The position numbers and the translations under genes were made by a program. A stretch of DNA of 64,000 nt from Verrucomicrobiota bacterium (GTDB lineage: Bacteria > Verrucomicrobiota > Verrucomicrobiia > Verrucomicrobiales > DEV007). Location: contig JASFYY010000050.1 of NCBI GenBank assembly GCA_045046875.1, positions 32,001 to 96,000 of the forward strand, written 5' to 3'. The notes beneath the pieces are model-generated. The model searched no databases. It was given only the letters and a program-made list of their open reading frames with translations, and had not been told where the DNA came from. This document shows, in pieces, positions 6,409-63,599 of this stretch (the first letter of the stretch is position 1; each line of letters begins with the position of its first letter).

Positions 6409-6473
6409 AACCGCGAATGGGCACAGTCGACTGAAAAGGAGGGCAAATTGCCCGAAGGCAAATAAACCCGAAT
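6409..6473 (+). repeat. Decamer-periodic intergenic element (family A) carrying a family-B insert
   Basis: AACCGCGAAT GGGCAC [AGTCGACTGAAAAGGAGGGCAAATTGCCCGAAGGCA] AAT AAACCCGAAT; related to copies at 49361, 52238 and 63507. Confidence 0.65.
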
Positions 6474-6528
6474 GGGAGAAGATGCCTGAGTGTAATGCCG
6501 CTACGAGCAAAGAGGGAACGTGGAGGAT

Positions 6529-6807
6529 TTATTCTTTCGAATGGATCTTCTCCTTTTCGGCTTCGTTTTCGTTGCGCAGGCGTTGAAGCTCGCGGCTGCG
6601 TTGTTCTTCGAGTGGCGCGATTTGATCGAATTGGCCGTTTTGCATGGCCTTTGAGATTTGCTCACCGAGGAACAGTTCTTTTTCGGCAATTTTGGCTTTG
6701 AACTTGTCGTCGATTTCGGCAATCCGTTTGCGTTGTTCGTCGCTAAGCCTGGGGCGGGGACTGGATTGGTCCAGCTTTTCCATGGCGAGTTCGTAAGCGC
6801 TTTTCAT
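6529..6807 (-). CDS. Small coiled-coil hypothetical protein (MKSAYELAMEKL...)
   Basis: 92-aa charged helical ORF with clean ATG start, in a run of minus-strand genes. Confidence 0.75.
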   Translation of the reverse strand: MKSAYELAMEKLDQSSPRPRLSDEQRKRIAEIDDKFKAKIAEKELFLGEQISKAMQNGQFDQIAPLEEQRSRELQRLRNENEAEKEKIHSKE

Positions 6808-6863
6808 GATCGCAAAATGGGTTGGTGATTTTTGGCAAAAAATTCAAAAGAGCTCTCGGGTTA

Positions 6864-7367
6864 TCAATCCTGGGAGAAACTCAATCGTTCGTCACTTTCG
6901 ATCAAAGCATTGAGTTCTGGCCAGCCGTCGACTTTTTGCATTTGGAAGACGTGCAGATAAATTTTGACGATTTCCTGCGGGTGGGTTTCGAGTAAATTTT
7001 CAACTGCGCTTTTGAGTTTCTCGGCATCAAGGCTCTCGGGCAGATTGTCGACGGAGCCTTCGCCGTCATGTTCGACGCCCATGGCGTCGAGAAAGTCGAT
7101 CAAGAGTTGGCGTTGTTTGTTGAGCAGCCACATTTGCAAGACGTGTTCGTCGATGCCGTTGGCAATTTTCATTTTTGACATTTTACACAGCCAGGCGATT
7201 TGGTCGGCAGGTGTTTTTTTGAGGATGAATATCGGACGCAGTTTGCGCTGCTCGGCCAGCGAGGCCACCAGTCCTTGGTAGGTTTCTTTTTCGTCACTGC
7301 GCAGGTAAGCGAAGATATCAGTGGCGAGTTGTGGCTCGATTTGTTGAAAGATTTGATAGGCGTTCAT
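6864..7367 (-). CDS. Hypothetical protein
   Basis: Protein-like composition from MNAYQIFQQ (ATG 7367). The longer ORF start would overlap the neighbouring gene. Confidence 0.75.
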   Translation of the reverse strand: MNAYQIFQQIEPQLATDIFAYLRSDEKETYQGLVASLAEQRKLRPIFILKKTPADQIAWLCKMSKMKIANGIDEHVLQMWLLNKQRQLLIDFLDAMGVEHDGEGSVDNLPESLDAEKLKSAVENLLETHPQEIVKIYLHVFQMQKVDGWPELNALIESDERLSFSQD

Positions 7368-7408
7368 GCAAGGCAAAGGGAAATCCTTTAGGGGCACTTG
7401 TCCAGTGT

Positions 7409-8911
7409 TTATACTTTGACCATGCGGTTGAGGATATTGCGGGTGATTTGTTGGATACGGGCATCGGGTCCCTGGGGAGCGGTGTAGGCTTTGGGTCGCA
7501 CGTATCCTGGAGGGGCGCTGAGGCCGTCGGCCCACCAGCAGGTGGAGGCGTTGAAGACAAAATTATTTTTAGGACCGGGGTAAACGGTGGCGGTGTAGGT
7601 GCCACCGTTCAGTTTACCGGGCGCGCTTTGGGTAGGTGCCGTGGCGACGATTTCGAGGCCGGAGATATTGGCCGGATCCCCATGCCATTCCCAACCGATG
7701 ACACCGGGGATGCGATCGTCTTGTTTCATTCCGGTATCTTGGTAAATCCAGTGATCAGGTTTGCTGCAAACCCAATCGGCACCGCCGGTGACGGGGCCGG
7801 TGCTGTGTGCTCCCATCAAAGCGTTGCCGTAGGGCGGCACGTGTTCGAGGGATTTCATCATCTCAAATTCGCGGGTGCCGCCGGGAGGGCCAAAAACCCC
7901 GATTCTTTCAAAAGCCTGGTTTTTTTCATCTTGCAGGATGCGCCCGCAAACGGCGTTGCCGGAGAAAAAACCAACATTGAGTCCTTGCTCGATCGCTTGT
8001 TTGACGTTGTTATACATCTCGATCGTCCAATACTCGTCGTGTCCGATACTGAGGAAACCTTTGGCTCGTTTCAGTCCGTCGGCATCATGGTGAGTATCGA
8101 GGTTGGAAATATAAGTCAGGTCGTAACCCAGTGATTCCATCCAGTAGGCGAAGGGGAATTCCCAGAGGAAAAATTCACCGGATCCGGTTGAAAGTGGTGC
8201 GTCGACAATTTGGCAATATTTACCGTAGGGGCGACGGTAGCTGACCTGTATATCTTTGCCCCAGTACCATTTGTGCTTGCCGTTATCGTAAAGGGAAAAC
8301 TGGGATGGCCAGCGATTGTAAGCCTGCCAGGTGTTATCGCTACATTGGAAGAGGTAATCTGCCTGGCGGTCATCACGTATGATGAAGGTGAGGTAGCTTT
8401 GCAGTCCGGTTTTGCTTTCGGTGATTTTACCCACATAGACTCCGCTGAGCCAATCTGCAGGGATGGTCAATTCGGTGCAGGCATCCCAGTCACATATGCG
8501 CACGCGTTTTTCGCCGATGGGTGGGTCGCTTTGCGTTTTTCCTTTGAATGAACCGAGTTGTTTCATCAGCCGCCCGCCTTTACCCTGATAATAACCGAGG
8601 CGATAGAGGTCGATGGTGAAGGGTGCATCGTCGTAGGTGCTGACATGAAAACTAATGGTTTCTCCCGCTCGCACACTGGCCTTTGAGGCATAACCCTCCA
8701 CCCATGGGCAGCGGTATTTGCTGTCTGGATCAATCCTGGCGTTTTTTAACATCCAGTCACGGGTTCCGGATTTGGAATTTTCATCGGTAATGATACCGGG
8801 CAGAGGTTTGGCAGCAGCAGCGCTTACGTTTTTGGAGAAGTGGCTGGCCAGAGCGGCAGTGCTGGCCACTGTCATTTGCTTGAGGGTATCGCGGCGGGTG
8901 AAATCATTCAT
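7409..8911 (-). CDS. Tat-exported N,N-dimethylformamidase beta-subunit-like domain protein
   Basis: Tat signal TRRDTL; EGYASKASVRAGETISFHVS, IDLYRLGYYQGKGGR, TWQAYNRW, GHDEYW and FFSGN match this family. Confidence 0.8.
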   Translation of the reverse strand: MNDFTRRDTLKQMTVASTAALASHFSKNVSAAAAKPLPGIITDENSKSGTRDWMLKNARIDPDSKYRCPWVEGYASKASVRAGETISFHVSTYDDAPFTIDLYRLGYYQGKGGRLMKQLGSFKGKTQSDPPIGEKRVRICDWDACTELTIPADWLSGVYVGKITESKTGLQSYLTFIIRDDRQADYLFQCSDNTWQAYNRWPSQFSLYDNGKHKWYWGKDIQVSYRRPYGKYCQIVDAPLSTGSGEFFLWEFPFAYWMESLGYDLTYISNLDTHHDADGLKRAKGFLSIGHDEYWTIEMYNNVKQAIEQGLNVGFFSGNAVCGRILQDEKNQAFERIGVFGPPGGTREFEMMKSLEHVPPYGNALMGAHSTGPVTGGADWVCSKPDHWIYQDTGMKQDDRIPGVIGWEWHGDPANISGLEIVATAPTQSAPGKLNGGTYTATVYPGPKNNFVFNASTCWWADGLSAPPGYVRPKAYTAPQGPDARIQQITRNILNRMVKV

Positions 8912-9099
8912 GATTGAAGGGGGGGGGGGAGGGTTTTCGTAAATAAACGCGAAAAGTGAAATGTTGTCACTGGATAAAATTTATAACTACTTTACAAATA
9001 GGGAAAGGGCTTTGTGGGATTTTATAATAAAATTGCGAGATAGTGTAAAGCGACTCAGTTAGGTTTGGGTTTCCCCAATTCCACCCCCCTTGTATTATT

Positions 9100-12000
9100 A
9101 TGAAGAAAAAACCATTAGTGGTAAGTCTGGCCCTGTCGTTAATTTTATTGTTGAGTATGAACTCAATCTCATTTGCCGGGGAGTTCAAATTCAAGGATCA
9201 GACCTTGACCGTGCCCGAGGGTTTCAAGGTGGAGCAGATCGCCGGGCCGCCATTGGTCAATCGTCCGATGGAGGCGGATTTCGACGAACAAGGGAGAATG
9301 TTTGTTTCGGACTCATCGGGATTTTCCGGGAAATCCGAGGAACAGTATAAAAAAAAGGATCATCGAATCATGCGTTTGGTGGATACCGATGGGGATGGGG
9401 TTTTTGATAAAAGCACGGTGTTTGCCGACGGCATGATGTTTCCGGAAGGGGTGCTTTGTCATGATGGAGCCGTGTATGTTTCGGCTGTGCCGGTGATCTG
9501 GAAATTGGTGGATACCGATGATGACGGAGTGGCCGACGAACGCACTGTGTGGCATGATGGCAAAACCATGACAGGTTGTGCCAATGACCTGCACGGTCCC
9601 TATCTTGGTCCGGACGGTTGGATTTACTGGAACAAGGGGGCTTTTGCCGAACAAACTTATTCCCGTCCCGGGTTGCCTGGCTTGAAGGATTCTGCGGGGC
9701 ATCTTTTTCGCCGGCGACCTGATGGCTCGGCCAGTGATTCGATCATGAGTGGGGGAATGGATAACCCTGTGGGAGTGGCTTTTACTTCGTCGGGAGACCC
9801 GATGTTTACGTGCACATTTTTCTATCGCCCGCATGCGGGAAAGAAAGATGCGTTGGTTCACACTATTTACGGTAGTGTGTTTGGCAAGCCGAACGGTGTG
9901 CTGGACGGATTGACACGCACTGGTGACCTGATGCCGCCGATGACGCAGTTGGGTTCGGCGGTGCCCTGCGGGGTGACGCGATATGAATCCCAGATTCTGG
10001 GTAAAGAGTTTCAGGATAATTTATTCACCTGTCATTTTAACTTGAAAAGGGTGCAGCGCCACGTACTGAAAAAAAAGGGTTCGACGTATCAAACAGAAGA
10101 CAGTGATTTTTTGATTTCAAACAATCCAGAATTTCATCCCACCGATGTGTTTGAAGACGCTGATGGTAGTTTGGTGGTGATCAATACCGGTGGGTGGTAT
10201 CGGATTTGTTGTCCGACTTCCCAAATTGCCAAACCTGATGTGATGGGCGGAATTTTTCGGATCACTCGCAATGATGGAAAAAAATTAATCGATCCGCGGG
10301 GATTGAAATTGAAGTGGCAAGGGGTAAAAGCGAATGAACTAGCCAAACGTTTGGGGGACAGTCGGGTGGCAGTCAGCAAGCGGGCGATTGAGGCTTTGGG
10401 CAAACAGGGGGAAGCGGCGGTCGGAGTTCTGGCTGATTTGCTGAAGCAGTCTCAAAAGCAACAGGTACGATTAAATGCAGTGTGGGCGCTCACCCGCATT
10501 GACGGAGCCGCTGCTCGAGCTTCGATTCGTTTTGCTCTGAATGATGCTTCGGATACAGTAAGACAGGCAGCTTGTCATGCCGCGGGGATTCATCGAGACG
10601 CGGCGGCCGTTGCCGGCTTGATGAAATGTCTTCAAGCCGAGTCACCGCATTTGCGTCGTAAAGCGGCGACGGCGCTGGGACAATTGCGGGCGAAGGAGGC
10701 GCTGTTAGCTTTGCTGAACGGTATCGATGTTTCGAATGACCGACTGCTGGAGCATGCGTTGATTTACGCTTTGATAGAAATCGGTGATGCAGGTGTTTTG
10801 CGCAAAGAGGTAACTCGACTTTCCGCCATGACGACAGAAGCTGCGGTGCTGAAACATCGAGCGGCTTTGATCGCTTTGGATCAAATGGCCGGGGAGCATT
10901 TAAAAACGGATGATGTGGTTCCTTTACTGACCTCCAAGCAGCCCGTTTTGAAAAAAGTAGCGGCCTGGATCATTGAGTTTCATCCGGAATGGGGAGATGC
11001 CTTGACGGATTATTATCGCCAACAGCTGGCAAGAGTTGATGAGTTGGGTGAGGATGATAGAAGGGCTTTGCAAAGTCAGATTGGCCAATCGGCGGCAACC
11101 GCTTCGGTGCAGAAATTAATCGCGGATGATTTGGCTGCGGAAAATAAACAGCCTGCCGGACGACTGGTTTTGCTGGCGGCGGTATCACAATCGACTTTGA
11201 AGCGCATGCCTGTCACATGGACAGTAGGCATCAAACGTTCTCTAGAGTCGTCTGATACGGCGGTGATAGAACAAACTTTGAGAGCATTGAAGGCGTTGAA
11301 ACCGGACAAAGGAGCGACTGCGATTTTGAAAGAGCGTTTGTTGTTGATCGCCGGGGATGAGCAACAGTCTGCGACGCTGAGGTTGGCGGCTTTGGAAGTA
11401 TGGTCATCGCTGTCGCCTGGCGTGCCGTCGCAAGTCTTGTTTGATTTTATGATTGCCCGTATTGATGCAGCGAACCCTCCCATGCAGCGTAGCGTGGCGG
11501 CAGGGGTTCTTGCGCGGGTGAAATTGAATGGCGGGCAATTATTGAAATTGGCCGTGGCGATGAAAAACATTAATCCGATGGAACTGACGAGTTTGTTGGT
11601 GGCTTTCAAAACGTGCTCGGATGAAAATATTGGCAGTCAATTGTTGGATTCACTTTCACAATCTGAAGCCAAGTCGGCTCTTCGTCCGGATATGCTGCAA
11701 CCGTCATTGGAAAAATTCTCACCGGAGCTTCGTGAAAAAGGAGAAGCTCTGTTGGCATCGGTGAATCTCGGAATCAAGGAGCAAAAGGCAAAACTGGATG
11801 CCTTGGAAAAAATCGTAGTGAAGGGTGATGCCAAACGGGGGCATCTGGTTTACAACAGTCAGAAAACCGCTTGTTCGGTGTGTCATTCGGTGGGTTATGT
11901 CGGAGGGAAATTTGGCCCTGATCTCACTCACATTGGCAAGGTGCGTACCGAACGTGATTTGCTGGAGGCGATCATTTACCCCAGTTCGAATTTTGTCCGC

Positions 12001-12240: not shown

Positions 12241-12369
12241 GGGGGCAACGGTGTTTTGAGGCTTCATATTGTCCTAATTTTTCCTAGTGCTGTTATTACA
12301 CTAGTGAATAGGCGATGAACCTGTGTTTGTTGCTTTGCAGAAAGACCAAAATTAAACCTCCTCCTTGTC

Positions 12370-13746: not shown

Positions 13747-13755
13747 GTGACCTTG

Positions 13756-13808
13756 TGAGGTCTAAAATGGGTCAGACCTCATGCAACTCATGCAATAAAG
13801 TTCTTGTC
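13756..13808 (+). repeat. Hairpin plus motif resembling the sequence upstream of the RAYT gene
   Basis: TGAGGTCT-N10-AGACCTCA inverted repeat; tandem CTCATGCAA x2; ATGCAATAAAGTTCTTGT matches ATGCAAAATAGTTCTTGT (30805-30822) at 16/18. Confidence 0.5.
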
Positions 13809-13853
13809 TCATATGGGAGGTGTGGGGTGAGGCGGGCGAGGGGGCGTTAAGCT

Positions 13854-14621: not shown

Positions 14622-14747
14622 GTGCGCGCTTGATGTTGTTTATTATTCGGGACGGATTTTTTATATAGATTGCCAGCTTGTGAAGTCGTTATAAATGGTA
14701 GCGTGAATTATAATCGAGAGAAGGGAGGGAAGGTGTAAAATATTTTT

Positions 14748-15164: not shown

Positions 15165-15174
15165 ATACATACTC

Positions 15175-30897: not shown

Positions 30898-31956
30898 ATG
30901 AGGAAGATACGGGAATTTTTATTGGGGCCGGAGGGGCAGACGAATTATTATCATGTGGTGAGCCGGACGACGGGGAGGGATATCTTGTTTGAGGATGATG
31001 AGAAGGAAACTTTCCGCATTTTGATGCTCAAGCAGTTGAAATTCAGTGGGCTGCGGGCGTTGGCTTGGTGTTTTATGGGCAACCACTTTCATTTGTTGTT
31101 GGAGGTGCCGGATAGGGAGTTGGCGACAGCGGGGTGGAAGGATGAGGATTATATCAAGCGGCTGGAGGTGTTTAAAAGTGAGTGGTCGAGTAAGTTGGTG
31201 TTGGATGAGGTGGAGATGTTTAGGGGAAATGGGGCGGATGAAAAGGTGAGCGAGATTGCGGAATCGGTGAAAGCGCGGTTGTTTGATCTGTCGATGTTTA
31301 TGAAGGAGTTGAAGCTGAAAATGACATTGGCTTACAACCGGAAACATGGACGAGTGGGGACTTTGTGGGAGGGACCGTTTAAGAGTGTCTTACTACAGGG
31401 GCCGAGTTGTGAAGGTGGGGAGAGCAGTGATGCGCTGCGGATGGTGGCGGCTTATATTGATCTGAATCCGGTTCGTGCGGGATTGGCGCAGGAGCCGGAG
31501 GGTTATCGCTGGTGCTCGTATGCGGCAGCGGTGGCTGGGGTGCGAGGCGCACGTCAGGGTTTGTGTTTTGCGGTGACTGGTCGGAGTCGAGTGGCGTGGA
31601 GGAAGGTGGCGCAGGAGTATCGTTGTTTGCTGTATGCAAAAGGGGAGACGGTGAAAGCGAGTGAAACCGTGGATGGTTACAACAAAGGCAAGGATGGTTT
31701 CAGCCGGGCGGAGATTAAGGATGTGTTGGAATCGGGTGGGCGCTTGCCAGTGGCGGAGGCTTTGCGCTGTCGGGTGAGGTATTTTACTGATGGAGCGGTG
31801 TTGGGCAGCCAGAGGTATGTGGATGATTTTTTTGAGAGCAAGAGGGAGTGTTTTGGTGCGCGACGTAAGGACGGCGGGCGTAAGATGCGCGGGGCGCAGT
31901 GGGGGGATTTGCGGGTATTGCGGGATTTAAAAGTGGATGTGATAAGAGGGGCGTAA
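30898..31956 (+). mobile_element. REP-associated tyrosine transposase (RAYT, HUH/Y1 family) with C-terminal extension
   Basis: YYHVVSR, CFMGNHFHLLL (HUH), LWEGPFKS, catalytic YIDLNPVRAG, YRWCSY. No terminal inverted repeats seen. Confidence 0.9.
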
Positions 31957-32964: not shown

Positions 32965-33345
32965 ATGAGTATCATTATTAACATCATCAGTATCGTTTTC
33001 ATCCTAGCCGGCCTGGTGTTTTTCTTTGGCTCGGTGGTGGGGGTGGTGCGCTTTCCGGACTTTTACACCCGCATGCATGCTGCGGGCAAGGGGGACACCT
33101 TGTCAAGTTTGTTGGTGGTCATGGGGTTTGCGGTGTATCACCTGGGTCAGATTCACTGGACGGATTTTGCTTGGGCTGATTTGTTGGTGGTGATCAAGTT
33201 GCTCGCTATTTGTGCTTTCATCATGCTGACTTCGCCAACCGCGACCCATGCCTTGATGGATGCGGGTTATGAGGACGGCATCGAGCCGCTGTTGCGGAAA
33301 AAGGGCAATGCTTTACAGGATAAGGAGATAGGAGATAGGAGATAG
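32965..33345 (+). CDS. mrpG: Na+/H+ antiporter subunit G
   Basis: GVVRFPDFYTRMHAAGKGDTL, LTSPTATHAL. Confidence 0.93.
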   Translation: MSIIINIISIVFILAGLVFFFGSVVGVVRFPDFYTRMHAAGKGDTLSSLLVVMGFAVYHLGQIHWTDFAWADLLVVIKLLAICAFIMLTSPTATHALMDAGYEDGIEPLLRKKGNALQDKEIGDRR

Positions 33346-39982: not shown

Positions 39983-40131
39983 AACCACTAATAAACACCA
40001 ATAAACACAAATTTAGGAGGAGGTTTTTTAAATCACGGAGGTCAGTAGGTCAGAGCGAGCCGGAGCGACCGCGCTGCAATGGGGCAAATTCAAAATAAAA
40101 TATCAGTGTTCATCAGTGTGAATCAGTGGTT
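39983..40131. repeat. Inward-facing pair of family-A decamer-periodic elements enclosing other short motifs
   Basis: AACCACTAAT AAACACCAAT AAACACAAAT (39983-40012, +) and AACCACTGAT TCACACTGAT GAACACTGAT (40131-40102, -); between them AGGTCAG-T-AGGTCAG and GAGCGAGCCGGAGCGACC. Confidence 0.7.
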
Positions 40132-49317: not shown

Positions 49318-49360
49318 GAGCTGAAGGGATTTGAACCATAGCTAAGTGACGAGGGGGGGG

Positions 49361-49422
49361 AGCTGCGAACTTCCGTCGCTCAAGAGCTTTGGCGAGTCAA
49401 GATGGACGTTAATAAACGTGAT
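49361..49422 (+). repeat. Family-A element with 33-bp family-C insert
   Basis: AGCTGCGA [ACTTCCGTCGCTCAAGAGCTTTGGCGAGTCAAG] ATGGACGTTAATAAACGTGAT; insert is 27/33 identical to 63515-63547. Confidence 0.75.
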
Positions 49423-49518
49423 TGTTATCGGTGTTCACGGATTTTTTCATCTTAGAGTAATGAGAGGATGCTATTAGGTGTGTTGATCGGGAGTGAGTTT
49501 TGACGGAGTGGTAGGCGG

Positions 49519-50136
49519 CTACCATGTTTTGATGTCATCAGAAGTCCCCTCGATTTGGTCTTCGCCTGCGCTCCACACGATGATGGACTGAGGAATCATA
49601 TTTGAGGCTTGTGACTCAGCGGAGTAAGGTAAGGCTACTTGATTGTCCAAGTTTAAGTCAAATCTGATATGGAAAAGATTTCCCCACTGATCGAATAGAC
49701 TTGCTCTCCCTTGGGTATCGTAACCGATGCCTCCGTGAAACTCCCCTGAAAAGAATTTAGCTTTCCTTGCTGAAAAAAAAGTGATCTGCCGAGGGTTTAA
49801 TTCGTTTCCTAAGACTGTGATATTGTCCCCTGACAAAACATCCATTAGTGTAGTATTTGATAACAAATCAATATCTTCAGTGCCTTTTAGCTTAACGGGA
49901 AAATTGCGATATTCGGTGTAGTAGGTCGATATTGAAGATTTTAGATTTAGCGCCATGTTCAGGCTTCTTCCTTTTCCATCATGGTCAGGTATAGTTAGTG
50001 ACTCTGAATTGACTGCGACTGCCCACCCCGAAATGAGCAGGAACGCTATTACCAAGCAGGCTCTATTCAATTTTTGGTTATTAGTGTTCGTATTGGGCTC
50101 TGTTGGTGTTGACGACGTTGTATCGGGAACGTTCAT
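49519..50136 (-). CDS. Pseudopilin (GspG-like C-terminal domain) protein lacking a canonical prepilin motif
   Basis: One TM segment; LKSSISTYYTEYRNFP; DQWGN; IIVWSAGEDQIEGTSDDIKTW; AT-rich codon usage. Confidence 0.65.
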   Translation of the reverse strand: MNVPDTTSSTPTEPNTNTNNQKLNRACLVIAFLLISGWAVAVNSESLTIPDHDGKGRSLNMALNLKSSISTYYTEYRNFPVKLKGTEDIDLLSNTTLMDVLSGDNITVLGNELNPRQITFFSARKAKFFSGEFHGGIGYDTQGRASLFDQWGNLFHIRFDLNLDNQVALPYSAESQASNMIPQSIIVWSAGEDQIEGTSDDIKTW

Positions 50137-50216
50137 GGGGCGATTATGCGGATAAAAGCTGTTTACTGTCAAGGTTGGTTCAGCTAGAGACGAGTGCTGC
50201 AATTTCGATAGTTACA

Positions 50217-50240
50217 GGAATGTGGACTTTTCGGTCCGCA
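50217..50240 (+). repeat. GGAG/GGAA-type REP-like hairpin
   Basis: GGAA-TGTGGAC-TTTTCG-GTCCGCA; related to 62230-62252 and 62271-62313. Confidence 0.55.
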
Positions 50241-50292
50241 GAGAATTGAGCTGAGGCTGGTAGGAAAAGTTAAACTCTCTAATTAGGAGAGT

Positions 50293-50316
50293 GGGCAACC
50301 GGAGCGGTCGCCCTAC
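50293..50316 (-). repeat. GTAG-type REP hairpin
   Basis: Minus strand reads GTAG-GGCGACCG-CTC-CGGTTGCC-C: the canonical GTAG tetranucleotide followed by a palindrome. Confidence 0.75.
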
Positions 50317-50333
50317 AATTTGAAGGGAGGCTC

Positions 50334-52214
50334 TTAATTCGTGAAGGGCCACAACCAGGGGATGAGGAAGGTGGCGGCGATCCAGAGGATGAGATTGAGG
50401 GGGACGCCGATTTTTGGAAAGTCGGTGAATTTGTAGCCGCCGGCGCCATAAACGTAGGTATTGGTCTGGTAACCAATCGGGGTGGCAAAACTGGCGCTGC
50501 ACCCGAACATCAGGGCGACGATGAAGGGACGGGCATCGACGTCGAGAGTGGCGGCGATGCCGATGATGACGGGGGTTAAGAGGGCGGCAACGGCGTTGTT
50601 ACTGATCAGTTCTGTTAGGATTGAACTGAGCAGATAGATCACGCTGAGAATGACTACGGGGCTGTAGGAACCGACGACTTTCATCACGCCGCTGACCATC
50701 AGTGAGGCGGCTCCGGTTTGATCCATCGCTAGACCGAGGGCGAGCATGCCGAAGATGAGGAAGACGATGTTCCATTGCACCGCGTCATAAGCCTGTTGAG
50801 GTGTTAGGCATTGGGTCAGGATCATGGCGATCGCTGCGATGATAGCGACGGCAGGAATGGGCAACATCGGTAGTTGCAGCGCGGCTCCGAGGACAAAAGC
50901 GGCGGTGACGGCAATGCCGGTCCAGAGTTTGGCCGGGCGGATGGTGACTTCGGGGGCTTCGGTGATGGTGACAAAGTCGTTGGATTTCTGGATCCGGTTG
51001 ATCGCTTCTGCGGGGCCTTCCATCAACAGAGTGTCGCCGAATTGGAGGCGCACAGTGTCGAAGTCTTTGTTGATGTTAGCGCCCTGACGGTGAATGGCGA
51101 GTACGTGGATGCGGTGGCTGCGACGGAAGCCGATTTGGCGCAGGGTTTTGCCGACAAAAGAGGAGCGTGGGCCGACGATGCCTTCGATCAGTTGCAGTTC
51201 GCGGGTTTCGAGTTCCTTGAGGTTGAGGTTTTTTTGCTCGGCAAAACGAACACCTTCGGCTTCGTAAAGTTCCTTGAAACTGGTGCCGTGCAGGGTGAGC
51301 AAGAGGCGATCGCCTTGGCGTACGGTGAGTTGGTTGAGCGGGATGTCGAGGGTTTTCCCTCGTCGCCGGACTTCGAGAATCTGGGCGCTGGGTATTTCTT
51401 TTAACAAAGTGTCGGTGAGGACTTTATCGATCAGGGGCGAGTCTTTTTCGACCGAAAACTGGGTGAGGAAGCTGCGCACTTCGGCGGGTTCGATCAGTTC
51501 GGCGAGGGAGGAGCGCTGGGGCAGCAGTTTGCGTCCGATGAAGATCAGGTAGATGAAACCAATAGCGGCATAGATAAGGCCGAGTTTGCTGACTTCGAAC
51601 ATGGTGAAGGGTTCCAAGCCGTAGTCCTGGGCGACGCCGTCGATGATAAGGTTGGTCGAGGTGCCGGTGAGGGTGCAGGTGCCGCCGAGGATGGAAGCAA
51701 AGGAAAGGGGGATGAGTAGGCGCGAGGCCTTCAAGCCGGTGGCGCGGGCGTGGGAGAGTACGATGGGCAGGAAGACGACCACGATGGGAGTGTTATTGAC
51801 AAAAGCGGAGAGCACCGCGGCCATTAACATCAGGATGAGCATGACGCGCAATTCGCTTTTGCCGGCGATTTTGGTGAAAAAACGCCCCATAACATCGATG
51901 GTGCCGGTGCGTTCGAGGCCAGCGCTGAGCACAAACATGCAGGCGATAGTGATCGGGGCGCCGTTGGAGAATACACTGAGCAAACCTCGGTGGCGTAGCA
52001 GTCGCACGCTCTCACCGTCGATGAGCTGGCGCTCGAGCACATCGGTCAGCGGCAGCAGGCCGAGGATGAGGATGGCGCCGAGGGCGGACAGGGCGACCAC
52101 TTCGGGCGGTGCCCACTCACGAAAAAAGCCGAGCACGACGAAGACCAGCAGCAGGCAGACGGCGATGACGGGAAGGTTGAGGGTAGGAAATAGTGGCTGG
52201 ATGAAGTCGATCAT
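50334..52214 (-). CDS. SLC13/CitMHS-family permease with TrkA-C (RCK-C) domains (putative Na+:sulfate/carboxylate symporter)
   Basis: SAFVNNTP, LIPLSFASILGGTCTLTGTSTNL, two RCK-C domains, LTELISNNA, FATPIGYQTN..VYGAGGYKFTDF. Confidence 0.92.
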   Translation of the reverse strand: MIDFIQPLFPTLNLPVIAVCLLLVFVVLGFFREWAPPEVVALSALGAILILGLLPLTDVLERQLIDGESVRLLRHRGLLSVFSNGAPITIACMFVLSAGLERTGTIDVMGRFFTKIAGKSELRVMLILMLMAAVLSAFVNNTPIVVVFLPIVLSHARATGLKASRLLIPLSFASILGGTCTLTGTSTNLIIDGVAQDYGLEPFTMFEVSKLGLIYAAIGFIYLIFIGRKLLPQRSSLAELIEPAEVRSFLTQFSVEKDSPLIDKVLTDTLLKEIPSAQILEVRRRGKTLDIPLNQLTVRQGDRLLLTLHGTSFKELYEAEGVRFAEQKNLNLKELETRELQLIEGIVGPRSSFVGKTLRQIGFRRSHRIHVLAIHRQGANINKDFDTVRLQFGDTLLMEGPAEAINRIQKSNDFVTITEAPEVTIRPAKLWTGIAVTAAFVLGAALQLPMLPIPAVAIIAAIAMILTQCLTPQQAYDAVQWNIVFLIFGMLALGLAMDQTGAASLMVSGVMKVVGSYSPVVILSVIYLLSSILTELISNNAVAALLTPVIIGIAATLDVDARPFIVALMFGCSASFATPIGYQTNTYVYGAGGYKFTDFPKIGVPLNLILWIAATFLIPWLWPFTN

Positions 52215-52237: not shown

Positions 52238-52390
52238 AACCACGGATAGCGCAGCCGAGCGTAGCGAGACAGCCGGAGGAAACTATGCGAAGGCAAATGT
52301 ACACGGATAAGAGAAGGTGAAATAGGAAATGGAATTGCGGATGATACAGCTGACCCACGGATAGTCGGAGGTTATTTCTCGAAGGCAAAT
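52238..52390 (+). repeat. Two family-A starts, each followed by a family-B insert (first also with a family-D-like piece)
   Basis: AACCACGGAT [AGCGCAGCCGAGCGTAGCGAGAC AGCCGGAGGAAACTATGCGAAGGCAAAT] GTACACGGAT; and ACCCACGGAT [AGTCGGAGGTTATTTCTCGAAGGCAAAT]. Confidence 0.7.
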
Positions 52391-55332: not shown

Positions 55333-55461
55333 AGTACGGGGAGGAAGGGTTTGACCACGGCTGGAATGGTGAGGAGCAAAAGGTCTCAGGGCAGCCTCCT
55401 TCGTCTAGCCTTTGGTGTTCAATGCGCAGAGGGGTACAAGATGGGGATTGGGGGGCGAGAG

Positions 55462-56004: not shown

Positions 56005-56027
56005 TTAGTGCTGGCTGTGGGGGGCTC

Positions 56028-57232: not shown

Positions 57233-57298
57233 GATGGTAGTTGTCTGTGAGCAATGAAGGTTGGGAAAGGGAAGTTAATAACAGTAGAGTGCTGCTTA

Positions 57299-58759
57299 TC
57301 ATTTACGCTTGTTTGGTTTTTTCTTAAAGTGCCTTTTGAATCGGGCGGCGTATTCCGGGCGTTTTTCCCAGTCTTTGAAAAAAGGCTGGTAACGTTCGTC
57401 ATCCATCCAGAAATGGGATGAGGGCTCGTTTTCACTAACTGCTCTTTCGGGATAGTCGCTACCCTCGATGCTGGCATCTACTGTAGCATTCCATTTTTTG
57501 AAGGCGGCTTTCATCTTGGTGAAAATGTCGGGATATTGGTTGGAGATGTTTTTCGTTTCTTTTGGGTCGCTAGACAGGTCATACAACTCGAACTGATTTT
57601 TATCGATGTGGGTTGCTACCAGTTTGTATTGGTTGTCGATCAGCGCACCTTTGCCAGCATAGCGGAAGGGGATGGGAGCGTCCCTTTTGGTAAGCTCATG
57701 CTCAAAAAGAGGCTTCAGACTGATGCCGTCCACCGGATCAAGTAGGACGGAATCAGGCAAGTTGAGAATGTCTGCGATGGTCGGAAAAATATCCATCGTC
57801 GAGGCAGGGTAGTTAGTGATGCGGGCTTTGATGACTGCTGGCCATTCGATGATGCCCGGCACTCGCAGTCCGCCTTCCCAAACAGAGCCTTTGTTGCCTC
57901 GTAGTCCTCCCACCGTGTCTAGGGGGATCTCTGGCAAACCGCCGTTATCGCTACAAAACCAGACCAAGGTGTTGTCTGCGATTTTCATTTCGCGCAAACT
58001 TTTGCGCAGGACGCCCAGCGCCCGGTCAAAGGCGACCAGTTCACCGTGATGATGTTGGCTTTTTTCATCCATGTGACTAAAAGGCTTGCGATCAGCTTCG
58101 CTGGCGAGCCATGGGGAATGCGGAGAGCCATCCCAGATGACGGCGAGAAAGGGAGTGTTTTTCTCCTTGGCTACGCGGATAAATTTCAAGGCTTCGGTGA
58201 CGATGATGGCTGAGCTGTCACCTTTGAATTCTTCGAATTCCCCTTGGCGACTCATGACCGGATCAATGTCAAAGAAGTTGGTGACGGTCAGCCATTGGTC
58301 AAAACCAAATGCGCCGGGGTTATGGGAATCGTCACCCAGTACAGGCACTCCTGGTCCCCGCAGCCCGTTGAGGTGCCATTTGCCAAAATGTGCAGTGGCA
58401 TAACCGGCGGATTTTAATGCGGCTGGCAGGGTGCGTTCTTGCAGACGCAAGGCGTGGCCGTGAGAGGGCACACCCGTTCTGTGATTGGCTCTGCCGGTGA
58501 GAACGCTGGCACGGGTGGGGGAGCAAACGGGCGCACCGGCGTAGAAACGATCAAAGCGCAAGCCGTTGGCAGCCATGGCGTCCAGATTGGGGGTTTTGAG
58601 AACCGGATGATGGTAATAGCCGGTTTGGCCCCACCCCTGGTCGTCGGTCATGATCAGGATGATGTTGGGTGGGGTGGTCGGTGGCGCAGCGCAGAATGAA
58701 GCTTTGGTGAAAACCAGCAAGACTAGGGAAAGAGTGACGAGGATGATCTGTTTGAACAT
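57299..58759 (-). CDS. Sulfatase (S1 family)
   Basis: PNIILIMTDDQGWG, CSPTRASVLTGR, GKWHL, SDNG, WEGGLRVP. Start at ATG 58759. Confidence 0.95.
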   Translation of the reverse strand: MFKQIILVTLSLVLLVFTKASFCAAPPTTPPNIILIMTDDQGWGQTGYYHHPVLKTPNLDAMAANGLRFDRFYAGAPVCSPTRASVLTGRANHRTGVPSHGHALRLQERTLPAALKSAGYATAHFGKWHLNGLRGPGVPVLGDDSHNPGAFGFDQWLTVTNFFDIDPVMSRQGEFEEFKGDSSAIIVTEALKFIRVAKEKNTPFLAVIWDGSPHSPWLASEADRKPFSHMDEKSQHHHGELVAFDRALGVLRKSLREMKIADNTLVWFCSDNGGLPEIPLDTVGGLRGNKGSVWEGGLRVPGIIEWPAVIKARITNYPASTMDIFPTIADILNLPDSVLLDPVDGISLKPLFEHELTKRDAPIPFRYAGKGALIDNQYKLVATHIDKNQFELYDLSSDPKETKNISNQYPDIFTKMKAAFKKWNATVDASIEGSDYPERAVSENEPSSHFWMDDERYQPFFKDWEKRPEYAARFKRHFKKKPNKRK

Positions 58760-58930
58760 AGCGTGGGAGGGATGGTGCGGGTCTATTGGTGATGGGCGAT
58801 GAATGCATAGGTTGAAAACAAAACCGATGTTGATGAGTCGTCTGGTCATGTGGGAATCATGTGTTTAATATGATATTGTCAGGAACCCTTTGTGGGGACA
58901 AGGTGATTTCCTTTGTCTGCTTTTTTGGGA

Positions 58931-58990
58931 ATCAGTGTCTATCAGTGGTTAAATATTAGCTAACCACTGATCACACTGATGAGCACTGAT
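58931..58990. repeat. Back-to-back (outward-facing) family-A pair forming a palindrome
   Basis: ATCAGTGTCTATCAGTGGTT-AAATATTAGCT-AACCACTGATCACACTGATGAGCACTGAT; right arm nearly identical to the reverse complement of 40102-40131. Confidence 0.75.
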
Positions 58991-59057
58991 TTCTTCAGAG
59001 GGTGTAGTTTCACAAGGTTGTGCGCATATCAAAAGCGGTGGACAGCTTGGTGATTCA

Positions 59058-59094
59058 AATAAAAAGCCTGCGCTGTAACGCAGGCTTTTTTATT
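59058..59094 (-). terminator. Bidirectional intrinsic terminator downstream of the Gfo/Idh/MocA gene
   Basis: AATAAAAAGCCTGCG-CTGTAA-CGCAGGCTTTTTTATT. Confidence 0.85.
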
Positions 59095-59134
59095 AATTCA
59101 GGTTTACCTAAAAGGGCATCCTGTAACGCTTGCT

Positions 59135-60535
59135 TTATTTTTTCGCCCAAGGCAATGGCCATTGGCCGGGTTTGGCGGTGGGGTAGAGACCGTCCTTGTT
59201 CGGTACGGGCAGCGGGGCAGCGTCGAAGGCGAACTCTTTCGGCATGATACTGAAGTCTGATTTCACTGCTTCGTCCCAAGTGACGTTTTTGCCACTATAG
59301 GTGGCGAGGCGCCCAAGCACGGTTGTGAACGAACTTTTGGCAGCGTAGTGCGCGTTGTTGATCGGTTTGTTATCACGGATGTGTTGGTGCAGAACGTCAT
59401 GTTCGATCTGATAAGGGTTTTTTGCTTTGCGGTTGCGGTAGTTCCAAACCTCCTTGCCTTTGTGGTCGACGATGCGGGCTTTGCCACTGCTGGTATAAAG
59501 AATGCCTTCACTGCCGTGGATTTCTTCTTCCACTTTGTTCATGCAGTTTTTCTGGTGACGGCACTGGCTGTTGCCAACTTTATCGCCTTCGTAGCGGAAT
59601 TCGACGTAGTGGTGATCAAAGATCTCACCGGTATTCGGTCCGACCCGAACTTCGCGTCCACCCATGCCTTGTGCAGAGATGGGGTTGCCGCCGGTTTCCG
59701 AGTTATCACTGAAGAACCAGTTGAGCACATCGATGTTGTGGATGTGCTGCTCGCAGATGTGGTCACCGCAGAGCCAGTTGAAATAATACCAGTTACGCAT
59801 CTGGTATTCCATCTCAGACCAACCGGGTTGGCGTTCGACGGTCCACACTCCACCACTGTTCCACCAGCATTGACCAGAAATGAGTTCGCCGATTTCTCCT
59901 GCACGAACTTTTTCCAGTGCTTTGAGGTAGCTGTCCTGATAGTGACGTTGCAAGCCCACCACAACCTTGAGTTTTTTCTGGTCGGCGATTTCAGCGGCTT
60001 TGATCACTTTGTTGTAACCTGCGGCATCAACGCAGACGGGTTTTTCCATGAAGATATGTTTGCCGGCTTCGACGGCAGCTTCGAAGTGGTAGGGGCGGAA
60101 ACCCGGAGGCGTGGCGATGACCACGAGGTCGCAGGCGTCGATGACTTTTTTATAAGCATCAAAACCGGAGAACTGACGGCTGGCAGGCACATCCACTTGT
60201 TTGCCTTTGCCGCTTTTTTCGAGATTTTTTTGGATCACAGGCAGGCCGGTGGCGCGCACTCCGGTGCCGTCGATTTTGTCTTGGAAGGCATCGCCCATGG
60301 CGTAGAGCTGGGCGTTGTCACTGGCGGTGAGATCCTGGACGATGGCTCCGGATCCACGTCCGCCACAGCCGATCATCCCCACTTTGATCATGTCGCTGCC
60401 GGCGACCTGGGCGTAGGATTCGATAGGTAAGGCCGAGGCGGCAGCGGTAGCGGCTGCGGTGCCGGCGATGAATTTGCGGCGTGAAGTCTGGCTTGCAGGT
60501 TCACTGGTGGGTTTTTCTTTAGTTTCGTTTTTCAT
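59135..60535 (-). CDS. Tat-exported Gfo/Idh/MocA family oxidoreductase
   Basis: SRRKFI Tat motif, IGCGGRGSGA, ATPPGFRP, HIFMEKPV, GLQRHY, WLCGDHICEQHIHNID. Start at ATG 60535. Confidence 0.93.
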   Translation of the reverse strand: MKNETKEKPTSEPASQTSRRKFIAGTAAATAAASALPIESYAQVAGSDMIKVGMIGCGGRGSGAIVQDLTASDNAQLYAMGDAFQDKIDGTGVRATGLPVIQKNLEKSGKGKQVDVPASRQFSGFDAYKKVIDACDLVVIATPPGFRPYHFEAAVEAGKHIFMEKPVCVDAAGYNKVIKAAEIADQKKLKVVVGLQRHYQDSYLKALEKVRAGEIGELISGQCWWNSGGVWTVERQPGWSEMEYQMRNWYYFNWLCGDHICEQHIHNIDVLNWFFSDNSETGGNPISAQGMGGREVRVGPNTGEIFDHHYVEFRYEGDKVGNSQCRHQKNCMNKVEEEIHGSEGILYTSSGKARIVDHKGKEVWNYRNRKAKNPYQIEHDVLHQHIRDNKPINNAHYAAKSSFTTVLGRLATYSGKNVTWDEAVKSDFSIMPKEFAFDAAPLPVPNKDGLYPTAKPGQWPLPWAKK

Positions 60536-60566
60536 AAATATGGTGAGGTTGAAATTTGTGTGCGGT

Positions 60567-62093
60567 TTATTTCTTTTTCTTTTTAGCGGGTTTGGGGTCG
60601 AGGTTGGCGTCGAACTCCGCTTTGCTCGGCGTGGTGGTTGCAATACCTTTTTCAGGAACTTCGGCTTTGCTGATCCAGCAGATGGCGTTGAGCAAGGTTT
60701 TGCGAAAAGAATCGTTGGAGAGGTTGTCGTGGAAGTGAGTTCCGGTGAAACCAAATCCACGTCCGCCATCTGCGCGGTCATAGACCCAACATACGTGTTG
60801 CGGAGTTTTGGCTGCGACCATTTTGCGCACTGCGGCATTGCCGGAGTGGGGGCCGTCGGGGCGTGACATGGTTGAGTCATCGGGGATGGCGCTTAGAATA
60901 GGGGTCACGCCTTTCATGCCGGGGGCAAAGCGCATGTTGAAATACCATTCGTCTTCGACTTCAAAGGGGGCGACGCCGTTGGCGACCGGGTGTTTGGGCA
61001 TTTTGTCAAAGTGGGCGGTCCAGTGGGGATTGACCGAGTGGTCGATTTCAAAAGCACCGCCGACCCATGAGATGAGATCCTGGTTGGATTGATCTTTGAG
61101 CATTTCCACGGCGTAGTGCATGGCGCCGATGCCGATGCCCTTGGCGGCGAGTTCGCTGACTTCGTCGCGGTGATCAAAGGCGACGTGGCGTTTTTGGCCA
61201 TCGCTGAACATCACCAGGCTGTCGGCATTTTGAAAAGCTGTGGGGTCGGCCGGCCAGCCGTTGGTGTAAACGGTGGCGAGTACTTTGTCGCCGTAGTTTT
61301 CATTGAGTAGGCGAGCTAACAGCAGGCTGCCGGCGTTGTGCTCGTGCTGGCGTGGACCGTGGGAGGGTTTGCCGGCGGTGAAGACGATTTTTTTGCGGCC
61401 ATCACTCAGGGGCAGGCGTTTGAGCCGGATATTGCGGAACTGCACTTTCATGGCAGGTCCTTTATGCACCTGAAAAGCGAGCACGCCGGAGAAACGGCGT
61501 TTGTCGGTGTCGTTGTCGGTGACGTCGGACATGACGACTCCGTTGATCTTGTGGATCATGTGATTGCCCTTGGCGATGATGTGGTAGGTGTTCCATTCGC
61601 CCTGGTTGATTTTTTTTTGCAAGTCTGCAGTTTTGGCAAAGGTTTCGATTACCTTGGGTTTGCCATCTTCACCTATCTCGGTTTTTTCTCCGCGCTTGGC
61701 GAGGATGCCACGAAATTGTTCGCCGTAGTTGATACCAGAGTAGGTGGTGCCGGCTTCGAAGTCAGCCTGGTAACCACCGACGGAATAATCTTTTGGCAGG
61801 CGGAAGCTGCGGTATTGGATGCCAGAGTTGCCTTTTTTGATTTTGTATTCCAGTTTCAGCTCGAAGTCATCCACTTCGCCCTGAGACCAAATCAGGAATT
61901 GGTTGTATTGGATCGGGTCTTCGTCGGTGGTGGTGCCGGTGATGGTGCCGTCCTGCACGCTCCACAGTTTGGGATTGCCTTCCCAGCCGGTGAGGGTTTT
62001 GCCGTCGAAGATGGAAGTGAAGCCTGAGTCGTCGGCAAGCGCATGGCTGAGACAGAGGGTGAGAACAAGGAGGAGGGATGCGAGTGGTTTCAT
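60567..62093 (-). CDS. DUF1080 (3-keto-glycoside hydrolase-like) + ThuA-like domain protein
   Basis: FDGKTLTGW, DFELKLEYK..GNSGIQYRS, GYQAD, EWNTY, AFQVH, FRNIRLK; then SHGPRQHEH, MHYAVE, DEWYF, GRGFGFTGTH. Confidence 0.9.
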   Translation of the reverse strand: MKPLASLLLVLTLCLSHALADDSGFTSIFDGKTLTGWEGNPKLWSVQDGTITGTTTDEDPIQYNQFLIWSQGEVDDFELKLEYKIKKGNSGIQYRSFRLPKDYSVGGYQADFEAGTTYSGINYGEQFRGILAKRGEKTEIGEDGKPKVIETFAKTADLQKKINQGEWNTYHIIAKGNHMIHKINGVVMSDVTDNDTDKRRFSGVLAFQVHKGPAMKVQFRNIRLKRLPLSDGRKKIVFTAGKPSHGPRQHEHNAGSLLLARLLNENYGDKVLATVYTNGWPADPTAFQNADSLVMFSDGQKRHVAFDHRDEVSELAAKGIGIGAMHYAVEMLKDQSNQDLISWVGGAFEIDHSVNPHWTAHFDKMPKHPVANGVAPFEVEDEWYFNMRFAPGMKGVTPILSAIPDDSTMSRPDGPHSGNAAVRKMVAAKTPQHVCWVYDRADGGRGFGFTGTHFHDNLSNDSFRKTLLNAICWISKAEVPEKGIATTTPSKAEFDANLDPKPAKKKKK

Positions 62094-62229
62094 GAATTTG
62101 AGTTTAAAAGGAGAGGTTGAAAGTTTTTTATAGAAGATGCAAAATCTAACAAGGCTCAGCCAGCCCTGCAAGTTGCAATCCTTGGCGTATTTACGTAGGG
62201 AATATGAGTTCAACGGCAGAGAAAACAAA

Positions 62230-62313
62230 GGAGTGCGGGTTTTCAACCCGACATGTCTCTGAGCTTTCGCCGGACAGGAGCCGAAGACAGACGGGAGTCA
62301 ATGTCCGCTCTCC
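62230..62313. repeat. Inverted pair of GGAG-type REPs (REPIN-like); one carries a family-D insert
   Basis: GGAGTGCGGGTTTTCAACCCGAC (+), then CGGACAGG [AGCCGAAGACAGACGGGAGTC] AATGTCCGCTCTCC, which without the insert reads GGAGAGCGGACATTCCTGTCCG on the minus strand. Confidence 0.7.
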
Positions 62314-62361
62314 TGTTTGTAATTTGAATTGGGTTTCTGTGTTTTTGGTGGTGAGACGCTC

Positions 62362-63441
62362 CTATATCTCGACTGCAAACTGTTCGTCGGCTTGGATTGA
62401 GCGCAGGACTTCGACAAAAAGACGGATGGTTTTTTCGATATCATCAAAATGGGCGACTTCGACCACTGAGTGCATGTAGCGCAGAGGCAGTGAGATCAAG
62501 GCTGACGGCACGCCGCCGATTTGGTGGAAGATGGAGTCGGTGTCGGTGCCGGTGGCACGCGAGGAGGCTTCATGTTGGATCGGGATGTCGTTTTTGGCGG
62601 CCACTTCGATGATGCGTTTGACCAGTTCGGGGTGATTGGCTGAGCCGTGGGTCAAGGAGGGACCTCCGCCGAGCTCGACATCGCCGTGTTCGGCTTTTTC
62701 GATGCCGGGGCTGTCGGTGGCGTGAGTGACGTCGAGCACGATACAGATGTCCGGGCGCAGCCGGTGGGTGATCATTTTGGCGCCGTGACCGCCGATTTCT
62801 TCCTGCACGGCGTTGGCAGCGATGATGGTGGCGGGGATTTTGTCATCCGATTCGCCGAGTTGTTTTAATACCTGGGCGATGATGAAGCCACCAATGCGGT
62901 TGTCGAGCGCGCGGCTGACGATGCGGTTTTTGCCGAGCAGCTCGGCTTGGTCGGAATACACCGCCGGGTGACCGACGCGGATGCCCAGTTCGGCGACTTC
63001 TTGTGGATTGCAGGCACCGACGTCGATGAACAGTTCGTGCATCTCGGGAGTTTTTTCGCTGCCGAGGGTGCGTTTGCGTAGATGGATGGCGGTATTGCCA
63101 AAAATGCCTGTTACGTCTCCGTCGTCACCGAGAATGGTGAGACGTCGCCCACGTGCGGTTGCCCAGTCACTGCCGCCGACCCGGTCGACTTGCAGGTAAC
63201 CTTCCTTGGTGATGTGTTTGACCATGTAGCCGATTTCGTCGGCGTGGGCTTCGATCATGATGGTGGGGGCAGTGGCGCTGCCTTTGATGGTGCCCCAGGC
63301 GTTGCCGTAGGCATCACTTTCCACTGAGTCGGCGAATTGGCGAACATAAGCGGCCCATTTGCGCTGCCCGCGCACTTCGAATCCGGTGGGGCTGGGGGTG
63401 TTGAGCAGGTCGAAGAGGAATTGGTGTGTGTCTTTATCCAT
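62362..63441 (-). CDS. M42 family metalloaminopeptidase
   Basis: PSPTGFE, AHADEIG, RALDNRIG, QEEIG, DVTHA, GTDTD, PLRYMHS. Start at ATG 63441. Confidence 0.94.
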   Translation of the reverse strand: MDKDTHQFLFDLLNTPSPTGFEVRGQRKWAAYVRQFADSVESDAYGNAWGTIKGSATAPTIMIEAHADEIGYMVKHITKEGYLQVDRVGGSDWATARGRRLTILGDDGDVTGIFGNTAIHLRKRTLGSEKTPEMHELFIDVGACNPQEVAELGIRVGHPAVYSDQAELLGKNRIVSRALDNRIGGFIIAQVLKQLGESDDKIPATIIAANAVQEEIGGHGAKMITHRLRPDICIVLDVTHATDSPGIEKAEHGDVELGGGPSLTHGSANHPELVKRIIEVAAKNDIPIQHEASSRATGTDTDSIFHQIGGVPSALISLPLRYMHSVVEVAHFDDIEKTIRLFVEVLRSIQADEQFAVEI

Positions 63442-63506
63442 GCGGGGAAAGTAGCGGGGGATGTTGGCGGGGAAAAGCGTTTTATCGGGGAAATTTAAAG
63501 AGGAGG

Positions 63507-63599
63507 AACCATGAACCGCCGCCGCTAAAGAGCTATGGCGAGTTAAGATGGATGCGAGCCGAAGCGCAGCGAAGACAGGCGGAGCCAATAAACGCGAAT
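63507..63599 (+). repeat. Family-A element with two inserts (families C and D)
   Basis: AACCATGA [ACCGCCGCCGCTAAAGAGCTATGGCGAGTTAAG] ATGGATGCG [AGCCGAAGCGCAGCGAAGACAGGCGGAGCC] AATAAACGCGAAT. Confidence 0.75.

Follow-up and report, generated by a model that had tools for sequence, protein, structure and literature searches.

Small structured repeats inserted at fixed positions into other repeats of a Verrucomicrobiota genome: two element families and two junction rules

The DNA analysed here, referred to as the window, is a stretch of 64,000 nt (positions 32001-96000 of contig C50) from genome G000 of a Verrucomicrobiota bacterium (GenBank assembly GCA_045046875.1; 5.59 Mb, 163 contigs, 94.7% complete). 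It carries arrays of a decamer repeat (family A), several of which are interrupted by short recurring inserts, as well as a hairpin of the repetitive extragenic palindrome (REP) type that is filled in the same way, and a gene for a Y1 HUH protein at 30898 (Table 1). A first-pass annotation of this DNA listed the arrays together with three insert families, B, C and D. The arrays and inserts that it cited are all present, and families A, B/D and C are enriched far above shuffled or reversed controls. However, B and D are two hairpin modules of one element of 23-46 nt, so that only two insert families exist, B/D and C (28-33 nt); neither has coding capacity, in agreement with the proposed non-autonomous elements of 20-50 bp. 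Both enter their targets as discrete units, with constant offsets and a constant orientation. C is simply added behind an A, and no target base is duplicated or lost; with B/D, AG...AA appears to take the place of two target bases, which are GG or TG in three orthologous pairs. The annotation had overlooked the remains of an insert at about 40031-40090 and an unfilled C site in the 30898 gene.

The decamer host is a genome-wide repeat: arrays of two units number 262 in G000 compared to 16, 25 and 18 in three shuffled genomes. Its unit, N1-3-C-R-C-N-N-A-T, is 9-10 nt long, and two to four units, rather than a constant three decamers, form an array. The N-N pair is homogeneous within an array and reads TG in 82, GG in 52, GA in 19, TA in 14, CA in 9, AG in 3 and AA in none of 184 first units, with three more subtypes seen once or twice each, so that TG and GG are commonest and the GA of the original consensus is a minority. 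An inverted partner lies within 250 bp in 30 of 161 arrays.

Empty and filled alleles in relatives were found in alignments of G000 with five congeneric genomes (G001-G005), of which G005 is ~94-96% and G003 80-89% identical to G000 over the aligned parts. Approximately 2.0 Mb of congeneric DNA, picked around repeats and representing a minority of those genomes, was aligned. A clean gap appeared in 23 alignments among 338 seed sites with an aligned counterpart, a number that includes many chance seeds or one site repeatedly; additional pairs came from a separate comparison. In the following, C plus a number denotes contigs of G000 and L plus a number loci or records from other genomes. Three orthologous B/D pairs have kept the host unit: window 52253 compared to G003 (GG), L103 of G005 compared to C142 (TG), and C83 compared to L102 of G005 (GG), the last with more diverged flanks and further substitutions. 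Each pair shows a gain of 42 nt, and of the two bases at the site the first turns into A, by which N-N becomes AG...AA; the fourth pair, C94/L061, lacks the whole unit and is uninformative. Removing B/D alone would therefore not restore the host, as had been claimed, since two host bases are replaced.

Unit statistics agree with the alleles. Unfilled decamers seldom show AA or AG at the site (3/184 first and 5/183 second units), and the 21 filled decamer units that remained after removal of one spurious row lie in GG (11), TG (5), TA (4) and GA (1) arrays. A plain insertion of B/D at A^A or AG^ in decamers is contradicted both by these numbers and by the three empty alleles. In the palindromic host, which also presents C-R-C-G-G-A-T, 42 of the 52 unfilled matches carry GG at the site, and AA follows 17 of 17 element ends. 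The R of C-R-C, only two bases from the B/D junction, matches the next host unit in 18 of 21 cases. Any conversion tract would thus be 1-2 nt long, and these host-specific flanking bases argue against ordinary gene conversion.

C follows a different rule on the same target. An A precedes 40 of 47 distinct copies, and the site is A^AT in GA and TA units and A^T in GG units. Empty and filled alleles were seen at C22/L142, C77/L074, C29/L116, C1/L160 and window 31397/L048; at 31397, the bases beside the C-in-C insert of G005 differ from the window allele, which makes conversion from a paralogue likely there. At L059, the first decamer unit is occupied by C in G000 and by B/D in G005, indicating an ancestral GA and two independent insertions.

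Clusters of at least two B/D seed motifs number 89 in G000 compared to 1 in the reversed genome; seven were judged to be chance, leaving 82 plausible elements. These lie in decamer arrays (37, all in one orientation), in the palindrome (15), in the loop of an abundant REP-type hairpin (14), in heptamer-like arrays (6), in the hairpin type of 62271 (1, with further copies seen beyond the 82) and in unclear contexts (9). Decamers are therefore not a special host, as the first-pass annotation had them, since 36 of the 82 reside in four other repeat types. C was found in decamer arrays, in the palindrome loop, in C itself (nested and tandem) and at two in-frame positions of the Y1 gene family, where one C-in-C insert is common to the paralogues C2, C48, C63, C109, L048 and L144. 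Each family nests within itself, but no cross-nesting was found: none of 81 distinct C copies lies inside B/D or contains it, and four flagged cases turned out to be C's own reverse strand. The hierarchy thus comprises two tiers with self-nesting rather than three mutually targeting inserts.

Table 1. Repeats, inserts and related features of the window, in window coordinates.
Feature	Position	Strand	Basis or comparison
Decamer array, family A, GA subtype, unit 2 interrupted	6409..6473	+	
B/D element, 37 nt, apparent internal deletion between modules	6425..6461	+	no orthologue among relatives compared
Y1 HUH (RAYT-like) gene, multicopy, without flanking B/D, C or decamer repeats	30898..31956	+	profile match
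Empty C site in Y1 gene	after base 31397		syntenic G005 gene filled by ~60-nt C-in-C insert
Decamer array, uninterrupted, inverted partner 40102-40131	39983..40012	+	
Decayed decamer unit and B/D remnant	40031..40090	+	G005 allele 141 nt longer, carries B module
Decamer array, TG subtype, uninterrupted	40102..40131	-	
Decayed decamer array, unit 1 interrupted	49360..49422	+	edge of 1-kb segment unaligned in G005 and G003
C element, 33 nt, after an A	49369..49401	+	
Decamer array, GG subtype, unit 2 interrupted	52238..52308	+	
Complete two-module B/D, 44 nt	52253..52296	+	identical in G005; G003 empty, site reads GG
Truncated array with B/D of second module only (52363-52388)	52353..52390	+	also in G005; G003 without whole array
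Inverted pair of uninterrupted TG-subtype arrays	58931..58990	58931-58950 minus, 58962-58990 plus	
REP-type hairpin, 23-nt B/D (62279-62301) in loop	62269..62307	+	also in G005
Decamer array with C (63515-63547) in unit 1 and short-form B/D (63557-63588) in unit 2	63507..63599	+	

The B/D element has the layout AG-[hairpin 1]-A-[hairpin 2]-AA. Hairpin 1 has a stem of 2-5 bp and, flanked by tandem G-A or GNA/GNA motifs, a GNA loop. Hairpin 2 has a short form, with a 3-bp stem and a GNA loop (element ~30 nt), and a long form, in which the stem is extended via GGA/GAA to a 2-bp stem with a loop of 5-9 nt (element of 44 nt in most cases). Across 79 distinct copies of the long form, four pairs of hairpin 2 are Watson-Crick in 65, 67, 68 and 55 copies compared to 60, 53, 60 and 33 with shuffled partners, and two pairs of hairpin 1 in 29 and 29 of 46 copies compared to 15 and 20; the element copies share kinship, which overstates the significance of such covariation and of p-values. 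A hand count of 60 short-form matches in the genus, obtained with a pattern that restricted the allowed letters, gave C-G 42, A-T 11, T-G 5 and mismatch 2 at the variable pair. Loop variation is confined to the N of GNA. According to PMC13037366, variation at this N is the rule for DNA mini-hairpins, and GCGNAGC mini-hairpins are unusually stable and nuclease-resistant as DNA and much weaker as RNA. Rfam gave no match within the window. In several copies (C37:154700-160300, C87:16500 and C146:58250), an extra GA-rich module lies between the two hairpins and may be a third module or family.

The D motif is abundant in the genus, where it occurs 9-48 times per genome compared to 0-3 in controls, and 0-9 times, near background, in 150 other genomes of the phylum. 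About half of 105 D-motif matches from a species-wide scan look, by reading, like genuine copies in other Verrucomicrobiota. At L237 and L248 (~300-330), a short-form B/D appears by eye to lie close to the beginning of a sulfatase-like gene, in frame.

The C element is a single hairpin with a four-base tail of the C-A-R-G type, and its T-N-C/T-W-Y motifs are GNA/RWA read on the opposite strand. The terminal pair, formed by the first base and the base preceding the tail, is kept in 106 of 123 viral-contig copies compared to 54 with shuffling, and nearest-neighbour folding gives z-scores of -2.1 to -0.7 relative to shuffles. The sheared G-A/GNA motifs with compensatory pairing in B/D and C are typical of single-stranded DNA. 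The two C copies of the window (49369 and 63515) differ at 6 of 33 positions. C cores number 30 in G000 and 0 in the control; a broader search pattern gave 116 matches in both genome and control and served solely for reading contexts. C is far more widely distributed than B/D, being abundant in the genus and in G017 and present in at least 129 stretches of viral contigs. In the viral contigs L452-L580, a raw count gave a stop-free frame for 88 of 126 C-core loci, and in-frame insertion into phage genes is possible.

Judged by local GC skew in an assembly of 163 contigs, the motifs lie on the G-rich strand in 121 of 155 arrays, 46 of 55 B/D copies and all 24 C copies (121:34, 46:9 and 24:0); the first-pass annotation had noted a preference for one strand among the copies of the window. 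The two hairpin hosts are placed likewise (34/47 and 28/38), and the bias of B/D may be inherited from its hosts. Plus-strand arrays of the window lie after plus genes and before minus genes, so that transcription is not the obvious cause of the bias. The G-rich strand normally carries the leading-strand sequence and is the lagging-strand template. IS608 and ISDra2 target this template (PMC6006769).

On this basis we propose, with a probability of roughly one half, that B/D and C move as folded single-stranded DNA and are joined, at replication forks, to targets that are single-stranded as well, by a trans-acting, probably HUH-type enzyme. The mobile form would be a compact, nuclease-resistant single strand recognised by its shape, and joining would occur on the lagging-strand template. 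The enzyme would act in trans and would most likely be a Y1 nuclease/ligase resembling REP-associated tyrosine transposases (RAYTs), other than, or not only, the product of the 30898 gene. Loss of two bases could reflect two cuts of the target strand two bases apart, or a single cut with trimming. Only tentatively, and at clearly lower odds, would we go further and suggest that B/D is used by an integration chemistry not yet described, in which a folded DNA strand of ~44 nt takes the place of precisely two nucleotides in a single-stranded target that is selected for its shape, not its sequence, through an enzyme not yet tied to mobile elements; B/D and C would then form a second tier of parasites that compete for the sites of a first tier, the GxxExxY arms and REPs.

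Several observations weigh against fork-directed joining of folded strands. The strand bias of B/D does not exceed the bias of its hosts, and C, in contrast to B/D, is structured on its C-rich strand. In nearest-neighbour folding, by a model without terms for sheared pairs, B/D does no better than shuffles (z -1.5 to +1.2). Clean orthologous B/D pairs number only three, one of them with extra substitutions in its flanks, and hosts reading AA or AG at the site cannot separate replacement from plain insertion. Two sites are off by one base (heptamer-like C49:51006 and decamer C133:61317). The REP-type hairpin host reads AAAA in 41 unfilled copies, yet G[insert]C when filled, so that two-base replacement fits it only if the target was GAAC, a rare variant with 4 copies. 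No enzyme emerged from the analysis: B/D and C do not regularly flank any gene, the numbers of 30898-family genes and of elements do not go together, and we know of no Y1 enzyme with two-base replacement as its product.

The 30898 gene itself had been suggested as the mover. It encodes a 352-aa Y1 HUH protein with a match to PF01797; the match to NF047646 scores 44.9 bits, below the cut-off of 80. G000 has ~10 near-full-length paralogues, 67-92% identical and at unrelated loci (on contigs C1, C8, C29, C43, C55, C63, C85, C88 and C141), with about 110 bp of conserved upstream sequence and a downstream end that is not conserved. The family occurs in 53 of 81 genomes, with up to 25-30 matches per genome, and may be an active mobile gene that has no REPs. 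It seems similar to TnpA-Y1 subclass 2.3 (PMC6006769) in its length, its copy number and the absence of REPs on its flanks. As cognate mover we rejected it: neither at eight Y1 paralogues nor at the C77 Y1 gene do B/D or C ends form the gene boundaries, and its copy number does not follow the elements. All six genomes with at least three C cores (the genus and G017) carry the family, but so do many genomes with fewer cores. In six genomes outside the genus, 21-25 matches to the family go together with 0-1 C cores and 0-2 D motifs; G017 combines 29 C cores with 3 matches. Its presence is thus compatible with a role, while its abundance is uninformative, and repeated insertion of C into its members fits either a preference in cis or a neutral, amplifying stretch of DNA. 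Copies of the REP-type hairpin at 62269 flank a different Y1 gene, on contig C77. A search for four-helix-bundle genes gave one gene in G000, with no link to the elements.

Among the alternatives, capture at host-made breaks survives best. On the decamer repeat, literature searches found no paper. Family A is a gene-less arm of a GxxExxY cassette, a host and not an insert, and the link mentioned in the first-pass annotation is borne out by co-occurrence. By hand tabulation, arrays and PF13366 occur together in 50 of 81 genomes of the taxonomic family, arrays alone in 5, the gene alone in 8 and neither in 18 (Fisher p 6e-8, overstated because kin genomes are not independent). An array lies within 350 bp of 12 of 21 PF13366 loci compared to 1 of 21 at 1050-1400 bp, and the GxxExxY gene of contig C6 (TIGR04256, 138 bits) is flanked by inverted arrays of the AG-ending subtype. 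A host repeat might then be cut by its own enzyme, decamers by the GxxExxY nuclease and REP hairpins by RAYTs, and free hairpin oligonucleotides be patched in, with loss of a 2-nt overhang giving the replacement and the insert shielding the site from recutting. This would explain why 73 of 82 plausible B/D copies sit in repeats whose unfilled forms make up, by rough estimate, ~1.8% of 567 kb of non-ORF (open reading frame) DNA, and why the long form occupies C-R-C-N-N-A-T, which resembles a nuclease site, in two hosts. We nevertheless consider it unlikely. The identical AG...AA junction in unrelated hosts looks determined by the element, C enters the same units at a different offset without loss, patching of double-strand breaks would not give a fixed orientation, and G005 (95% complete) holds 113 arrays and many inserts with no PF13366 match, which is also the counter-case to the array-GxxExxY link.

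Two loci illustrate the surroundings of these genes. At C15:31923-32498, a GxxExxY gene lies in two pieces, between which sits a copy of the most abundant composite REP-type repeat of the genome. At C6:25600-32400, AG-ending arrays, at least six of them with C, cluster around the GxxExxY gene, with a pair of small genes that by eye resembles a PIN-type toxin-antitoxin module between arrays.

Somewhat less probable still as a general explanation is homing by gene conversion, in which rare founders spread by homology-directed copying or together with a copied host repeat and AG...AA is a co-converted founder junction, as co-conversion tracts have been proposed for yeast GC clusters (PMC4478555). 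Nearly all hosts are repeats, the G...C-flanked filled hairpin host and the C-in-C of the Y1 paralogues look host-inherited, and the neighbouring bases at window 31397 differ between alleles; homing or co-amplification with the host probably holds for part of the copies. As a rule for all of them it conflicts with decamer bases that stay host-specific within 1-2 nt of either junction, a spacing too short for homologous recombination. The present copies lean towards filled decamer units with no common flanks outside the junction. Homing would also need independent entries with the same junction into at least five unrelated hosts.

Reinsertion of transcribed elements by target-primed reverse transcription is improbable. 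A two-base deletion of the target is a known retroelement footprint, made by R2-type elements, and reverse transcriptase (PF00078) matches occur in three of the five congeneric genomes. However, G000 and G001 (95-96% complete), both rich in copies, have no PF00078 match; neither a series of 5' truncations nor a tail was noticed, and there is no Rfam match in the window, while GNA triloops are far more stable as DNA than as RNA (PMC13037366). The lowest odds go to replication accidents. Here, mini-hairpins that keep off single-stranded DNA-binding protein (SSB) or recruit primase would serve as primers or as donors for template switching, and would be copied into repeats prone to slippage with no enzyme devoted to the task. 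In favour are the poor binding of mini-hairpins to SSB and their presence at sites of primase (PMC13037366), together with the strand bias; exact, recurring junctions and offsets and patchy bursts within one genus speak against it.

Further observations concern individual sites of the window. For the doubly filled array at 63507, one contig of run X9 (depth 5.65) appears to carry C without the B/D at 63557, at a junction that is not interpretable, and Logan contigs of four runs gave no clean empty junction. The segment at 49329-50343 (~1 kb), unaligned in G005 and G003, holds an ORF of 227 aa with no NCBIfam match besides the C-bearing array, and is skipped by one contig of run X8. The gene junction at 62204-62366 (L007) is occupied by the REP-type hairpin in G000 and G005, by a decamer array in G003 and by nothing in G001; repeats of different kinds thus replace one another at one site. 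A short heptamer tandem repeat at 33325-33345, at the end of an antiporter subunit gene, is free of inserts.

How repeats of less than 50 bases spread in bacteria has been an open question since the small dispersed repeats (SDRs) were described. In the genus studied here, the ends of the elements are exact, sites occur both empty and filled, one target is subject to the junction rules of two families, and covariation defines a fold. The apparent swap of two bases on landing may hint at the way in which such small elements are mobilised. If further strains confirm it, it rules out the standard HUH, recombinase and miniature inverted-repeat transposable element (MITE) routes in their known form and leaves fewer places to look for the enzyme. 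An enzyme able to insert a short oligonucleotide within a DNA single strand would also have practical value as a tool. Literature searches, of partial coverage, returned no account of B/D, C or two-base replacement.

Among known systems, terminal inverted repeats and target duplications, the traits of MITEs with such ends, were not found in B/D or C. The IS200/IS605 family (IS608, ISDra2) and its derivatives share with our elements hairpins at the ends, lack of target duplication and, as far as GC skew indicates, possibly a bias to one replication strand, and right ends in C-A-A resemble IS605-type ends; in contrast, our elements have no conserved target tetranucleotide (C only a preceding A), B/D loses two bases, and both are about one-tenth the size. 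REPs and REPINs, paired REP elements, are likewise short hairpins whose movement is attributed to RAYTs acting in trans on single-stranded DNA, and REP insertions inside tnpA-REP genes have been described for subclass 2.4 (PMC3116915, PMC6006769). B/D and C differ in having no cognate flanked gene, GTAG tag or inverted doublets, and B/D parasitises REP-type hairpins. Mitochondrial GC clusters or double-hairpin elements, such as GC42 of yeast, resemble them in size (~42 nt), palindromic form, variable loops with kept stems, merging and shuffling modules and an AG at the target; those are organellar, and their AG consists of target nucleotides that can become doubled and so leave a footprint (PMC4478555), whereas here AG...AA replaces the bases of the site, whichever these were.

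By description, B/D and C are relatives in kind of the SDRs. Like these, they are shorter than ~50 nt, dispersed and non-coding, with dozens of copies, precise insertion into other repeats and into themselves, presence or absence at homologous sites, compensatory structure and no known enzyme; unlike them, they belong to another phylum, and B/D is longer (to 46 nt) and built of two modules. SDR1-8 of the Nostocaceae were reportedly described by Elhai et al. in 2008 in Genome Res 18:1484. SDRs are 21-27 nt long, nest within themselves, use heptamer hosts, share a secondary structure and vary in presence at homologous sites; neither two-base target replacement nor a replichore bias is, to our knowledge, on record for them. 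In the accounts of the SDRs of Nostocaceae (PMC4390886, PMC5861425, PMC3116915), SDR5 inserts precisely into HIP1, between bases 3 and 4 (PMC4390886, PMC5861425). The view that nested targeting was undescribed therefore went too far: a tiny repeat that inserts site-specifically into a second repeat is already on record, and the replacement of two target bases is the unusual feature of the B/D element.

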